This document shows, in pieces, positions 18,719 to 24,473 of a stretch of DNA of 64,000 bases (position 1 is the stretch's first letter; the number at the start of each line of letters is the position of its first letter). Origin of the DNA: Terriglobia bacterium (GTDB taxonomy: Bacteria; Acidobacteriota; Terriglobia; 20CM-2-55-15); the NCBI GenBank assembly GCA_965218585.1, contig CBDCLE010000026.1:96001-160000 (forward strand). The letters run 5' to 3'. The position numbers and the translations under genes are program-made. The notes under the pieces were generated by a model, which was given only the letters and a program-made list of their open reading frames with translations, ran no database searches and had not been told where the DNA came from.

Positions 18719-21018
18719 ATGAAACGGCGTTTCCCAACCATTCTGGGCGTATTTCTCACGCTCCTGTTTGCCTTGCTGGCGGCGAACCGCCTGGACTGGA
18801 CAGCGGAAAGCTTCCTCACCAGTCTGGACATGCGGTGGCTGGATACCAAGTTCAGATTGCGCGGGGAAAGAGCCCCCGGAGATCAACTGGTCCTGGTCGC
18901 ACTCGACGAAAGGTCACTGGAATCACTGGGATCAGCCCGCCTGTTCGAGCGTCATCATGTAGCACAACTTGTCGATCGACTCAATCAGGCAGGCGCCCGG
19001 GTTATCGGCTTTGACATCACCTACAGCGAACCCGACCCCACCAGCCCCGACAACGATCGTCTCTTTGCTGAAGCAATCGAAAGGGCAGGTAACGTGGTCC
19101 TGGGCACCTATTTCGAGCTGGAGGCCACAACCGGACAGAGCGGGGAACGGGGAGAGTTGACGCCGGAGTTCCAGGAAATCGTAATCGAAAAGCAGGTATA
19201 CCCATCGCTCAGAACGAGCGGAACAGAAGGCGGAGAAACGCTTATTCAGGGCAACACGCTTGAAATGAACCTTCCTTCCCTGACCCGGGCAGCGGCTTCA
19301 TTTGGTTCCGTTAACGTTCATACAGATGCTGATGGCTCCCCCCGGTATCAGCCGCAGTTCATCGAATGGGGTGGAAGACTCTATCCTTCTCTGGACCTGC
19401 AACTGTTGAAACGTTACCTGGACGCGCCTTCGGTCGGGGTGACGATGCAAGACGGAAGAATGGAACAGGTGCAGGTCGGCGATTACGTTATTCCGACTGA
19501 CCGCTACGGTCGTTACATGGTCAATTTCAATGGGCCTGCCAACACGTTTCCGACTGTGTCGTGGATTGATGTCGAAGAGGGTCGCGTGGATCCCGGAGCG
19601 CTACGCGACAAGATAGTCCTTGTTGGGCCAACGGCGATTGGTCTGGGCGACGTCCTCCCTACTCCGTTCGACCCGGTGCTGCCGGGCGTCGAAATACATG
19701 CAAACGTCATCGACAACGTGCTCGAGCAACGCTACCTGGTGCGCGACACAATGACCTCCATGGTTGATCTGCTCCTTATCGTGGGCCTGGGTGTCCTCGT
19801 ATCTCTGTATCTCCCGAAGATGGGAGCGACTCGGAGCATCATCTCCACGGTAGTGGGGTTGCTCGCGTTCACAGGGCTGAACGTCTGGGTCTTTCTGCAG
19901 TTCACCTGGGTGTTGAGTTACGTGTATCCCGGACTGGCCTGGTCGTCACGAGCGGGTCCCTGATTTCTTACAAGTACCTCACTGAGGAACGGGAAAAGAA
20001 ACGGACTAAACAGGTCTTCTCGCACTATCTCGACCAGGCGGTTATCGACCAGGTCGTCGACCAACCCGAGAAGCTCAAGCTGGGTGGCGAAAAACATAGC
20101 CTGACGGTTCTGTTCTCCGACATTCGTGGCTTCAGTACATTCTCGGAAAAGATGACGCCTCAGGAACTGGTCGGTTTCCTCAACACCTATTTCGACCAGA
20201 TGACCAACATCATTTTCAAACACCAGGGAACGCTGGACAAATTGATCGGCGACGCCGTGATGTGTTTCTGGGGCCATCCCATCGAAACAGAAGACCATCC
20301 ACTGCGTGCGACCGTGGCTGCATTGGAGATGATGGATGTCGTCCATCAGATGCAGGAAACCGTTCGGCTACCCGGAGGGCATCTCTTTGACATCGGCATC
20401 GGTGTCAACACCGGAGATACGGTCGTCGGCAACATGGGCTCCCAGAACCGATTCAGCTACACCGCAATGGGCGACGACGTGAACCTTGGATCGCGGCTCG
20501 AAGGTCTCAATAAGTTTTACGGTACGAACATCCTGATTACCGACAGCACCTACCTCAAGGTACGGGACCGAATCTTCTGCCGGGAATTGGACAGGGTTAA
20601 GGTCAAGGGCCGGGACCATGCTGTAACGATCTACGAACCCCTCGGGCTACACAAACCCGAGCAGGAACAGCGGGTGTCGGACCGCCGAACCGATCCGACT
20701 CTCTGGAAACGATTCAAGGGGGCATATTCCAACGCGAGACACGGCGAACGGCGGCGCGGCGCGGACCGGCGCCAGGGATCGGCGGAACTGATCGTCGACC
20801 CGAAATGGGAAGAGATCCGCACGATCTTCGAACATGGTTTGGAACTGTACCGTGAAGCCGATTTCGACGGCGCGGACCAGGCATTTGACCACGTCATGAA
20901 ACTTGTTCCGGAAGATGGACCTTCGCGTATGATGAAGGCACGCATCGAAAAATATCGCGCGGAGTTCGTCGGGGCAAGGTCGGAGTTCGATCCGATTCAC
21001 AAGTTTGACGAGAAATAG
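18719..21018 (+). CDS. CHASE2-domain class III adenylate cyclase (one-base frameshift near 19938)
   Basis: CHASE2 motifs (LVALDERSL, IGFDI, PGVEIHA), three TMs, then FSDIRGF, DKLIGDAVM, GDDVNLGSRLE; adding one C at 19938 joins the two ORFs. Confidence 0.9.
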
Positions 21019-21044
21019 CCTGGAAACAGCTTGGACATAGCCAG

Positions 21045-22662
21045 ATGGACAGCAAGAACCAACATTACTCTCTGAAGGCAGTCGCGTTGGGGACCGCCGT
21101 GTCGATGCTGTTGGGTTCGTTTCCTCTGGATCTGGGAGCAGAGCCCGGGGACATCGTCGGGGACATCGTTCTCCTCGGTACAGTTGAGAGATCTGGTCGG
21201 CGTCTCACTAATGACGCAACGCTTTTCGAAGGCGACACTATACGAACAGCTTCGTCGAGTGGCGGCGTACTTCGCCTCGGGGGAGCCCGTATGGAAATTG
21301 GGCAGTCCACCTACCTGGAAATAGTTCGTGCCGAGCCTCTGACGATCACACTGAGTTCCGGTTCGCTTGCTTTCAATTTTCCTGACGAGTTCGATTTCGA
21401 GATTACGACGCCGCAACTCGAAGTTCGTCCGAACCCCGAGTCTCGGGCGGTTTCGGGAGAAATTCTCGCTATCCCGGAGGACGAAGACCGCGTAGAGAGC
21501 CGTAGCGGCTCCCTGAGCATCCTTGAAAGACAGGAACATGGTGCGATGCGAAGTGTGAACGGAGGAGAAATCCTGATCGCATCGTTAGTACCCACGGTCT
21601 CCATCCCGGTTGCCAGCCCCACGTTTGCGCCACTGCAGGCGCCAACCCCTATCGCCCAATTCCAGGCCGTTGAAGGGGACGTCCGACTCCAGCGCGTTAA
21701 TACCACCCTGACGACACGTGTTGAGAATCCAGGCATCGCTTTGTTCAACGGCGATACCGTGAGCACTCTTCAAGGTCGGACCGATATCCTCTTCACGGAT
21801 CAAAGCCTGATCAGTCTTGACGTGGGCACCACGGTCACGCTCGAAGAGCAACCCCAGCCTACCGGCATCTTTCGTCGGATCACGCAGGGCTTGGGTAACC
21901 TCTTCTTCGACATCCAGGAGGTTGTGGGAACCGAAACCTCACTTGAAACACCGACAGCGGTGGCAGCCATAAGAGGAACAGAAGGTAACCAGATTGTCCC
22001 CAACGAAACTCAGAGCACACACGCGCTGAATGAAGGACTGGAAGACATTACTGAGCGGATCACACAGCAGACCGTCACGATAACCGACGGCCAGCAGGTC
22101 ACGGCGATTCGGGGTGTCGGTTTCACACCCATCGTCGCCCTGTTAGCCCTGATCCCCAGACCGGGCATAGGCGGGGGCGGCGGCGCGGCGGGCGGGGGCG
22201 GTGCGGGCGGGGGTGCTGCAGGCGGCGGTGCGGGCGCGGGGGGGCGGTGCGGGCGCCGGCGCGGGTGCTGGTGCGGGCGGCGCGGCCGGTGGAGCGGCGG
22301 GCGCAGCTGCCGGAGCCGCGACGTCCACGGTAACTTCTGTCGCCTCTGTCGCAGCAGCGACGGCAGCTACGGCGGCGGGTGTTACAGCTGCCGTTGTCAT
22401 TCCAACCACAAGCGACGAACCCGCCCCCGAAGACTCAGCGACCGTACCGCTGAGCCGGCCGGGAGGCGAACTTACGACCGGAGGCGAACTCACTGCCGCA
22501 CTTTCCGTACCGATCGCCAGCCGACGAGGCCCACCACCCGCCAGTGCATCCGCACCCGGACGGCCTCTAGGTCGACCTCCTGATCGGTCAGACGGACCAC
22601 CAGGACAGCAGGAGGGTGGACCACCGGGACAGCCGGAAGACAGACCTGTCGGACGACCATAG
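21045..22662 (+). CDS. secreted protein with FecR-like domains and Gly/Ala-rich tail (frameshift in G7 run 22238-22244)
   Basis: Signal peptide, LFEGDTIRT and LFNGDTVST repeats, TPTAVAAIRGT; the Gly-rich tract continues in the +1 frame to 22662. Confidence 0.75.
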
Positions 22663-22789
22663 AAAACGAGTTGCAGTCAGTCCACGCCTGACTTAACACA
22701 GACTGCGCAAACCAGCCCGGACTGCATCCGCAGTTCAATGTTTGAACCAACCTGTCAGATCCGCCATAGGCGGTAGAATGACCAGCTCT

Positions 22790-23299
22790 ATGTTGAAAGA
22801 TCACACGGACACACTGAGGAAGGGATATCCGGCGCCCGAATTCGAGCTACAGACGGCGAACGGGGAAAAATTCGCCAGCAAGGATCTCAGGGGGAAGAAG
22901 TCGGTGGTGTTCTTCCTGCGGGGGACCTGGTGACCTAACAGCAGAAAGCAACTGACTCAGTTGGAGTCAGATTGGGACGAATTTGATCGAAAGGGCGTGG
23001 GAGTTGTCTGCATCGCAGCCCAGAAGATTGATGGCATGACAGGAGCGAAAAAATTCGTAGAAAAACACAACTACAGGTTCCCGATCCTGTTTGACGAGAC
23101 GCGTGAGGTAACGAAAGCCTACGGCGTATATCACCACGTCGGCCTGGATGCCTATCGCATCGCCCACCCTTCGGCATTCATTCTTGATCCCGAAGGGGAA
23201 ATCCAATGGATCGCCGTCAGCCCGAACCAGGTCGAACTGCCTCAGAACTCAAATATCTTCGAAACCATTCAAGCTATCGAAGCCGCCGGTAAATATTGA
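22790..23299 (+). CDS. selenocysteine-containing peroxiredoxin-like (AhpC/TSA redoxin) protein
   Basis: APEFEL...VVFFLRGTW-TGA-PNSRKQL reads in frame into FPILFD..VTKAYGV..AHPSAFILD; TGA at 22931 occupies the catalytic Cys position. Confidence 0.88.
22934..22970 (+). promoter_or_regulatory. putative bacterial SECIS element
   Basis: Stem ctgactc (22952-22958)/gagtcag (22964-22970) with loop AGTTG starting 25 nt after the UGA. Confidence 0.75.
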
Positions 23300-24473
23300 A
23301 ACCCACTTTGAAGGAATCTGTCCCGTTCACCGTGTACTGAGCCGTCGTCAAGGGACGGGCGGTGGAGAGAACGAACTCAAAGGTGTGCCGGAAGGTAGCT
23401 TTCTGAACGCCCACCGAAACGGCCGGCCGATCGAATATCTCTCCGGTAAATCCCTTCACACGAGGCACATACTCTCCTACTACCGAGACCGACGGGGTGA
23501 GTCTCACGCCTGCACCCACACCGATCGCGGCCGTGTAGTCAAACTCTTCTCCGAAGAGAAACTGTGACGGCAAAAAGGTGTCGTCGTTCCGCGTATTGAA
23601 GGCAATACTGGGCGCAACGGAAAGCGAAAATCGGTCTCCGAAGCTTCGTGTCGAAACAAACTGCACAAACGGAGCAAACCGATCCCGAAAGTTATTCCGG
23701 CCTTCGATTCCGACGCGAAGCTGTGTAGACAACGGGGTTTCGGAACTCTGTTGGGAAAGTTGGAACTGCGAACTGAGTTCTATGGTCCGGTCCAGATTGC
23801 TGCGCATCGCCGAAACGCTCAGTCGATCGGTTAACCCCACCTGAACGCCAAATGTCACAAGCGCGCTGCTATCGAAACCAAACAGGTTTGCAGGCGAATC
23901 CCGGTCAAAGACAGGGAACGTGAAACGATGTCCGATCAGGAACTCTACACCTCCACGCTCCATTCCCTTACCGTTGGGCAGATTGACGATCCGCGGACCG
24001 AAGAAGGCACCTTCCGAGGTGAAGGCGTCCACTGGGCTGGTGGGTACAGGGGCAACCACCGGCGCCTCGATTGCCACCTGAGGCTGGCTAATCACTCCCC
24101 CCACGCTTCTCGCCCCAAGATCCGCCAGGTACTGCTCACCGTCCACTTCCACAACCAGCCGAGCGTTCTCGGGATCCGAAAAATGCAGAATCGTCGCATC
24201 TCCCAGTGGCGCCTGGTTGTACGTGAAACGGTCCGGAAACTGGGAACGCAGCAAGGGTGTGATTGTCATCTCGCTCTCGGCGAAGGCCAGACCAAATTCG
24301 TTTCTCGGCCCTCCACCATTCGGGTTGATGTGACACACACTGCAACTATCAACACCGGGGTTGCGGAAGGGATCAGCCTGATAAATCTGGAGGAACGCGG
24401 GAAAGGCGGATGCCGGCACCGACCAGACGACGAGGAACATCAGAAATATTATGCTTCTACCGGTTCGAGTCAT
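23274..24473 (-). CDS. DUF5777-like outer membrane beta-barrel with N-terminal CxxCH motif
   Basis: Signal peptide, CSVCHINPNGGG, alternating beta-strands, HRF and HTFEFVLS motifs, C-terminal GFNIYRR. Confidence 0.75.
   Translation of the reverse strand: MTRTGRSIIFLMFLVVWSVPASAFPAFLQIYQADPFRNPGVDSCSVCHINPNGGGPRNEFGLAFAESEMTITPLLRSQFPDRFTYNQAPLGDATILHFSDPENARLVVEVDGEQYLADLGARSVGGVISQPQVAIEAPVVAPVPTSPVDAFTSEGAFFGPRIVNLPNGKGMERGGVEFLIGHRFTFPVFDRDSPANLFGFDSSALVTFGVQVGLTDRLSVSAMRSNLDRTIELSSQFQLSQQSSETPLSTQLRVGIEGRNNFRDRFAPFVQFVSTRSFGDRFSLSVAPSIAFNTRNDDTFLPSQFLFGEEFDYTAAIGVGAGVRLTPSVSVVGEYVPRVKGFTGEIFDRPAVSVGVQKATFRHTFEFVLSTARPLTTAQYTVNGTDSFKVGFNIYRRLR

Follow-up and report, generated by a model that had tools for sequence, protein, structure and literature searches.

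Peroxiredoxin-like (Prx-like) selenoproteins with a UxxC active site, U being selenocysteine (Sec), have reportedly been predicted by Kryukov, Zhang and Gladyshev since 2004-2005. Such thiol:disulfide oxidoreductases (PF00578; UxxC or UxxU) are listed in Table 1 of PMC13188914, in Table 2 of PMC2398784 (as "Prx-like 1") and in PMC1088965. A predicted AhpC/TSA-family selenoprotein with a UxxS site (PF13911 / cd02970) is listed in PMC9312934 and PMC13188914, both of which credit it to an Olavius symbiont study (PMC1976440), and UxxS arsenate reductases and UxxT glutathione peroxidases already appear in Table 3 of PMC1088965. Because an AhpC/TSA UxxS family is listed in two reviews, the existence of a UxxS Prx-like selenoprotein is already in print. 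The literature that we searched, in its main texts, gave no account of a Terriglobia clade of such proteins or of turnover from UxxC to UxxS. Here, we describe a gene in a 64,000-nt stretch of DNA, hereafter the window, from a Terriglobia bacterium (20CM-2-55-15; contig CBDCLE010000026.1, positions 96,001-160,000, assembly GCA_965218585.1). Its product is an unannotated new protein among the already described Prx-like selenoproteins, and its predicted active site is U-P-N-S.

A first-pass annotation of the window had proposed that two open reading frames (ORFs), lying in one frame and split only by a TGA, hide a single 169-residue AhpC/TSA-type selenoprotein with Sec at position 48 (Sec48). 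Translation and domain searches agreed with this proposal. The ORFs at 22742-22933 and 22961-23299 (genetic code table 11) share a frame, and translated 22742-23299 contains one internal stop, the TGA at 22931-22933, in the context FFLRGTW-TGA-PNSRKQL. Reading through from the ATG at 22790 gives 169 residues, with the TGA as codon 48, an AGC codon for Ser51 and, as had been noticed, a sole cysteine downstream in GVVCI, at codon 74 (Table 1). We placed the start at this ATG because all eight orthologs compared, namely the genus relatives L054-L056 and the other five loci of family f1, have exactly 47 codons ahead of the TGA; each begins M-[LF]-[KR]. A single Pfam AhpC-TSA (PF00578) match, with 103.5 bits against a cut-off of 26, covers residues 28-156 of the 186-residue read-through and crosses the TGA (residue 64 of that translation), as does a Redoxin match of 81.7 bits. 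An AlphaFold model of the read-through product had a mean predicted local distance difference test score (pLDDT) of 94.4 and a predicted template-modelling score (pTM) of 0.91, and it places Sec48 immediately before helix 49-60, at its N-terminus. The product is predicted to be a thiol oxidoreductase of 169 residues, located in the cytoplasm, that combines a Prx/BCP-like fold with an active site of the thioredoxin type.

Comparison with relatives indicates that the TGA is very probably a Sec codon. A search for Cys/Sec homolog pairs, which had been suggested as a check, yielded 30 distinct Sec-type loci, every one of them with TGA at this codon, drawn from related Terriglobia genomes of several families of the class; nine duplicate loci, L034-L042 (= L057, L060, L062, L063, L066, L067, L069, L068 and L071), were dropped before counting. 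Cys stands at the TGA position, as C-P-N-C, in each of the 14 Cys-type homologs for which the site could be aligned (P0022, of 133 aa, and 13 of full length), and position 48 was invariant and position 51 variable in a 38-sequence alignment of relatives. Among the 120 homologs listed in a large protein collection, 13 were full length (166-174 aa) and one had 133 aa. The other 106 were only 103-118 aa long and span just the region downstream of the TGA; four short ones that were aligned begin a few codons past it. We attribute these lengths to gene callers stopping at the Sec codon. When whole genomes were searched while reading through stops, the gene was recovered from 48 of 401 sampled genomes of the class, 20 of 34 of the family and all five of the genus.

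The sequence on both sides of the TGA is under purifying selection. Against genus and family orthologs, the ratio of nonsynonymous to synonymous divergence (dN/dS) was 0.11-0.26 for the 47 upstream codons and 0.09-0.12 for 100 downstream codons, with dS close to or past saturation for the more distant pairs. The first-pass annotation had named reads with TGC or TGT at 22931 as evidence that would speak against a selenoprotein, and we looked for such a difference over 22600-23400 in contigs of four public runs from four studies. The contigs of two runs, one of which may be the sample that the window came from, were identical to the window over the TGA and the Ser codon. Those of the other two, from other studies, carried a variant that was ~93% alike, with a coding part lacking indels, and none of its 40 differences listed (52 in all) fell at the TGA or the AGC; no difference was therefore listed at the TGA or the AGC in any of the four. 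A separate metagenome scan with a single protein yielded 12 loci, of which just L080 (69% identity) was close. L080 was left out of all counts on account of an adjacent double stop (RGT-stop-stop-PNC) and an upstream frame break, and L081-L091 (24-32% identity) were left unused for want of a W-[stop/C]-x-x-[C/S/T/A] site that was readable under our filter.

Downstream of the TGA lies a hairpin, CUGACUC-AGUUG-GAGUCAG (22952-22970), in which 22952-22958 pair with 22964-22970 around the apical loop AGUUG (22959-22963). Three more pairs, 22949-22951 with 22972-22974, are possible as an optional lower stem with one bulge. It had been described earlier as a 7-bp hairpin with an AGUUG loop, beginning 25 nt downstream of the TGA. 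The stem length and loop are as described, whereas the 25 nt (22934-22958) are counted from the UGA to the apical loop, the 7-bp stem itself beginning 18 nt after the UGA. The G that had been pointed out near the start of the loop is its second base. A bacterial selenocysteine insertion sequence (bSECIS) is modelled in the legend to Fig. 2 of PMC13188914 as a 3-9-nt loop on a 4-16-bp stem, with a G in the first two loop positions, a distance of 16-37 nt from the UGA and a minimum free energy of at most -7.5 kcal/mol. The window hairpin agrees with all four of the criteria in that legend, with a 5-nt loop on a 7-bp stem, G-U at loop positions 2-3, a distance of 25 nt and an energy of -10.4 kcal/mol.

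The hairpin is also conserved as a structure. We aligned 29 of the loci (alignment A2); the distant Sec homolog L030, whose downstream sequence differs, was kept outside it and folded separately. The TGA and the hairpin occupied the same columns in 29/29 loci, five core pairs formed in all of them, and the loop bases A and G were invariant. Pair 34-46 was AU in 12 loci, GU in 11, GC in four and UA in two, and pair 31-49 was CG in 16, AU in five and unpaired in eight. The covariation score was 0.186 versus 0.117 for shuffled alignments, a value attained by none of 500 shuffles, and pairing fell from 79% to 19-39% when the 3' partner was slid by 1-3 columns. RNAalifold gave the same helix. The compensating changes shift the encoded residues jointly, among Thr, Ala and Ser on one arm and among Ser, Thr and Pro on the other. 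Since such paired changes alter the residues of both arms together, protein constraint alone would not give this compensation. An energy of -7.5 kcal/mol was reached in 25 of the 29 loci. In L030, which is more distant than any other Sec homolog, the hairpin found at a comparable spacing is an unrelated one, of 7 bp and with a GUU loop. Covariation and agreement with the published bacterial model together support the earlier proposal of a SECIS-like hairpin 3' of the UGA.

A selenoprotein here implied selA, selB, selC and selD elsewhere in the genome, and all four were found above cut-off in the window genome (G000; 4.55 Mb in 26 contigs). The matches to selA (484 bits), selB (376 bits) and selD (356 bits) each exceeded the curated cut-off, as did that to tRNA-Sec (selC; 73 bits), which ARAGORN also called as tRNA-SeC with anticodon tca. 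The selD gene (C4:113004-113927, minus strand) has an in-frame TGA of its own, in KCAG-TGA-AGK, and a hairpin begins ~12 nt downstream of that UGA; the organism therefore already depends on Sec decoding.

The other feature of the site is Ser51. Its AGC codon stands at the second-Cys position of the C/U-P-N-C relatives, so that Ser does replace the resolving Cys, as the first-pass annotation had it. The 30 Sec loci comprise 25 with U-P-N-C, one with U-P-S-C, one with U-P-T-C and three with U-P-N-S, and the fourth-position codon is TGC or TGT in 27 of them. The U-P-N-S loci are the window copy (AGC), a second copy on contig C13 of the same genome (AGC) and locus L055 of the congener G256 (TCA), one of four other species in the window genus. 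The U-x-x-S site had been called atypical; the description holds within its own family, where 27/30 loci are U-x-x-C, but the motif is not unprecedented, UxxS selenoproteins being already present in reviews. In a maximum-likelihood tree, the window and C13 copies were sisters (100/94), and the G256 copy was nested in a clade with three congeners that have U-P-N-C (100/97). From TGC, AGC is reached in one step and TCA in two, and three steps lie between AGC and TCA. Because both the Ser codons and the branches differ, two independent Cys-to-Ser replacements are the most economical account, under which the ancestral site of the family would be U-P-N-C and the window species and one congener would each have exchanged the second Cys for Ser. 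When the two UxxS copies of the window genome were compared, dN/dS was 0.11 at a dS of 0.72, and UxxS branches were no longer than UxxC sister branches. We conclude from these sequence comparisons that the UxxS state is maintained and is not decaying.

Loss of the second Cys was also seen more widely. We surveyed 149 of the best 150 cluster representatives of the wider family (the 112-aa fragment P0092 was left out), and the 128 that cover the site comprised 91 CxxC, 14 SxxT, six TxxC, five CxxS, two CxxA and two SxxC sequences, and eight with other pairs or a gap. The CxxS and CxxA representatives indicate that the second Cys has been lost recurrently in the broader family while the first position was kept, in keeping with Sec as the essential residue of the motif. 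The protein P0128 (177 aa, from a 1173-nt contig; 39% identity) reads MRGTW-W-PNSRGQL, has a Trp-containing tail and had no relatives at E <= 1e-10 in a near-length search. It may be a U-P-N-S selenoprotein of an AT-rich organism in which the gene caller translated TGA as Trp, and hence a third, unrelated UxxS lineage. Within the window genus, the ortholog L057 (= L034) of G263 retains TGA-CCC-AAC-TGC together with the hairpin. Ahead of residue ~40 (locus positions ~1450-1570), its frame contains stops and shows no similarity, so that an open frame of 147 aa is left; this ortholog may be N-terminally disrupted or use another start.

Overall, we consider it highly likely that the locus is one gene in which UGA-48 is decoded as Sec by means of the downstream hairpin, its product being plausibly a mono-selenol oxidoreductase served by an external resolving thiol. 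SelB and tRNA-Sec, recruited by the in-gene hairpin 25 nt downstream, would decode UGA-48. Sec48 would be the nucleophile and the sole redox-active residue. The oxidised substrate that it attacks would be a peroxide, or else a partner bearing a disulfide or sulfenic acid. The oxidised intermediate would be a selenenylsulfide with the substrate or, after reaction with a peroxide, a selenenic acid. Because Cys51 is absent, resolution would need an external thiol, such as a low-molecular-weight thiol or a thioredoxin-like protein, rather than an intramolecular Cys. Monothiol glutaredoxins and U-x-x-T glutathione peroxidases (GPx) resolve via an external thiol, and mono-selenol chemistry is, by analogy with them, a reasonable inference. 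The Ser change may alter the substrate or may be nearly neutral. On a broader view, one uncultured Terriglobia genus may contain two cases in which a dithiol-type U-x-x-C selenoredoxin became a mono-selenol U-x-x-S enzyme, kept by purifying selection. Were the resolving Cys made dispensable by selenium, these proteins might be natural intermediates from a thioredoxin-like reductase toward a GPx-like enzyme, with a changed substrate or reductant, a scenario that we put forward tentatively and hold to be rather unlikely.

Several observations weigh against decoding of the UGA as Sec and against mono-selenol chemistry. A search of 22600-23400 against Rfam at a permissive threshold returned no SECIS family, and gave only chance-level microRNA and small nucleolar RNA matches (E 4.4 and 2.8) on the minus strand. 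The hairpin energy is unexceptional for its composition (z = -1.14 for a 76-nt stretch, with 26 of 200 shuffles folding as well), and most hairpin columns also lie under the conserved peptide QL(T/A)Q(L/F)ES, which constrains them and confines the covariation to just 2-4 pairs. In this assembly, selA (C2:238246-239591, minus strand) is in two frames near its 3' end. Of the 455 model positions, 1-415 correspond to a 436-aa open frame, and the final ~48 (EDLSASELEKRLRDAEPPVIVRIEDDRVLIDLRTV) lie in another frame, with the shift near C2:238375; either an assembly indel or a genuine defect could account for this. In the C13 copy of the selenoprotein gene, one extra nucleotide within an A-run (window ~22866-22871) breaks the N-terminal frame. 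Sec insertion at UGA-48 is predicted here from sequence, the sequencing runs listed with the gene included no RNA run and speak neither for nor against expression, and the external resolving thiol and the kind of substrate are proposed by analogy. Should the TGA be a true stop, the locus would be a pseudogene or two small genes, encoding a 47-aa peptide and a 112-aa protein from the TTG at 22961. Table 11 does read TGA as a stop, and public gene calls are 103-118 aa for 106 of the 120 homologs listed, but a nonsense codon is unlikely to be kept at one codon in 30/30 loci of several families, opposite Cys in the Cys forms. Purifying selection upstream of the TGA and a covarying hairpin at a constant distance from it also argue against a true stop, as does the 112-aa piece, in which the active site would be missing along with the initial strands of the fold, and we give this alternative hardly any weight. 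Equally improbable, in our view, is that the hairpin is the intrinsic terminator of the convergent minus-strand gene (Table 1) and not a SECIS element. The hairpin does appear in a terminator scan, as a minus-strand site whose tail is T-rich (TTGCTTTCTG), yet three such sites were found where 1.3 were expected, and the hairpin lies ~300 nt beyond the stop of that gene, within the selenoprotein coding sequence. Its position relative to the TGA is, moreover, kept in 29/29 loci, including L062, L064, L074 and L075, where blastp over ~3.5 kb found no such neighbour.

If the UGA is accepted as a Sec codon, the chemistry of the site could still differ from the mono-selenol scheme. Cys74 may have taken over as an intramolecular resolving Cys, which would make the protein a Sec/Cys redoxin resembling atypical 2-Cys peroxiredoxins. 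It is the only Cys in the protein and is present in all six genus-level sequences, UxxS and UxxC alike. Since the U-P-N-C relatives equally have it, however, Cys74 did not arise with the Cys-to-Ser change; its column is variable in the family (F, L, V, A, G and others, in Sec and Cys forms), and the model puts it in the middle of a strand (70-76), whereas Sec48 precedes helix 49-60. We therefore regard a resolving role for Cys74 as unlikely. Somewhat less probable still is that the Cys-to-Ser change was a first step of decay, with UxxS proteins losing function or the Sec trait being lost in the genome. The two frames of selA, the frameshifted C13 copy and the missing recognisable N-terminal 40 residues in G263 (L057) could be read in this way, but assemblies commonly err by a single inserted or deleted base within runs, and selD keeps its own TGA. 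The low dN/dS between the UxxS copies and their unremarkable branch lengths also speak against decay, and the TGA, hairpin and frame are intact in the window copy, in the ~93%-alike variant from the contigs of two other studies and in G256. Decoding of UGA-48 as Sec in a single gene for a mono-selenol enzyme thus remains the explanation that we prefer.

Table 1. Features of the selenoprotein locus (positions in the window)
Feature	Position	Strand	Remarks
Predicted selenoprotein gene	22790..23299	+	169 codons and terminal TGA stop; AhpC/TSA-Redoxin (Prx-like) thiol oxidoreductase; from Pfam match, dN/dS and start by orthologs
In-frame TGA, very probably Sec48	22931..22933	+	first position of the C-x-x-C-equivalent motif; TGA/Cys pairing in homologs
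AGC, Ser51	22940..22942	+	replaces second (resolving) Cys of U-P-N-C
SECIS-type hairpin	22949..22974	+	folding, 29-locus alignment, bSECIS criteria
TGC, Cys74, only cysteine	23009..23011	+	middle of predicted strand 70-76; column variable in family
Promoter-like CTGTCA-16 nt-TAGAAT	22752..22779	+	consensus match only
DUF5777 membrane beta-barrel ORF	23274-24473	-	399 aa, 108.8 bits; N-terminal C-S-V-C-H heme-binding-type (CxxCH) motif

The selenoprotein gene is alone on its strand, between a FecR-domain gene (21045-22583) and the convergent DUF5777 gene, whose 3' end overlaps that of the selenoprotein gene by 26 nt. A DUF5777 neighbour was present in eight of the 12 related loci compared (L054-L059, L065 and L069), and the same blastp comparison of ~3.5 kb per locus did not find one at the remaining four. 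A promoter-like site, one found versus 0.4 expected from shuffles, ends 10 nt upstream of the ATG at 22790 and is unchanged in the second gene copy on C13; if this promoter is real, its position would make the selenoprotein mRNA nearly leaderless. An alternative ATG at 22778 falls inside the -10 hexamer of the site. On the upstream side, at window 22143-22662, the FecR-domain ORF passes in its 3' part through a GC-rich, low-complexity (Gly/Ala/Arg) stretch, where long ORFs are open in several frames on both strands, and the true end of the FecR-domain gene is for that reason uncertain.

The second copy lies on C13 (14,937 nt), where C13:552-3507 is a copy of window 20822-23808 in which the TGA, AGC and hairpin of the selenoprotein gene are all preserved. 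C13 is a mosaic of 88-93%-identical copies of C26, C10 and C5 segments with repeats resembling insertion sequences between them, and may represent a variant strain, an assembly chimera or a true duplication. One ~1.3-kb repeat (C13:11043-12356; also C6:7191-8506 and C26:7368-8681) has more than 20 copies across contigs, at ~80% identity to the C13 copy, with one copy on C6 at 99.8% identity; it is probably an insertion sequence family.

The window gene and more than 100 relatives are cut at the Sec codon in public protein sets, and no NCBIfam model matches at cut-off, so annotations lack that half of a conserved Terriglobia redox protein which bears the active site. The group affected is a widespread one, represented here by metagenome assemblies only. 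Knowledge of Sec decoding and of existing selenoprotein kinds is unchanged by these findings, and the recurrent loss of the resolving Cys is a modestly interesting detail. Close UxxC and UxxS forms in one genus, with two independent changes, provide a natural pair for asking what the resolving Cys contributes when the nucleophile is selenium.

Among solved structures, the best structural and profile matches to the window protein are BCP/PrxQ peroxiredoxins (3hjp, 2ywn and 2cx3), along the whole length including the C-terminal helix. The model superposed best on Bcp4, the BCP-type peroxiredoxin 3hjp (template-modelling score 0.82, root-mean-square deviation 1.9 Å), followed by other peroxiredoxins and ResA, and the family profile likewise placed BCP-type peroxiredoxins first (2ywn, E 1.3e-21) and ResA next. 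Peroxiredoxins are defined by a peroxidatic Cys in PxxxTxxC together with a conserved Arg. In the profile alignment to 2ywn, however, the Prx Thr is matched by Sec48, the peroxidatic Cys by Ser51 and the Prx Arg by Pro127, and the peroxiredoxin catalytic set is therefore absent. With ResA/TlpA proteins (3c71 and 1st9), which are extracytoplasmic and anchored in the membrane, the active-site stretch GTW-C-x-x-C-KK aligns residue for residue, but the match extends over the first two thirds only, and the window protein has Sec and Ser for the two Cys. It starts MLKDHTDT and, unlike ResA/TlpA, has by eye no N-terminal membrane anchor or hydrophobic N-terminus.

GPx (U-x-x-T) and Sec arsenate reductase (U-x-x-S) share with the window protein a thioredoxin fold and a motif that opens with Sec and has a hydroxyl residue in fourth place, and both have a single selenol that is resolved by external thiols. 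Neither a GPx nor an ArsC family was among its Pfam matches at E <= 0.01. The AhpC/TSA UxxS family (PF13911 / cd02970), compared here by description, has an AhpC/TSA-type fold and U-x-x-S in common with it. The PF13911 score of the window protein was 24.9 bits against a cut-off of 27, and some homologs carry a precomputed PF13911 match. In contrast to that family, where UxxS is a family-wide motif, the window UxxS is a recent change within a UxxC clade.

A close likeness is also seen to the Prx-like selenoproteins (PF00578, UxxC/UxxU), again compared by description. The window protein shares with them the AhpC-TSA domain, Sec at the first motif position, a SECIS within the coding sequence and CxxC Cys homologs. 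True Sec-peroxiredoxins have TxxU, whereas both the Prx-like selenoproteins and the window protein have Sec at the first position of a thioredoxin-like motif. Unlike the published family, the Terriglobia clade scores below every NCBIfam cut-off and is called too short in public gene sets. NCBIfam gave matches at cut-off for 0 of 14, the best being ResA (74.9 bits against 170), and the selenoprotein-specific models SelL_rel_redox (40.3 against 120), WAxxUGC_long (37.2 against 300) and PrxU (36.3 against 270) also stayed below theirs. The window protein departs from the UxxC/UxxU definition by the Ser at its fourth position, although 27/30 loci of its clade are UxxC. Judging from these motifs and domains, the Terriglobia clade fits the Prx-like UxxC/UxxU selenoprotein family, with the window protein as a motif variant of that family.

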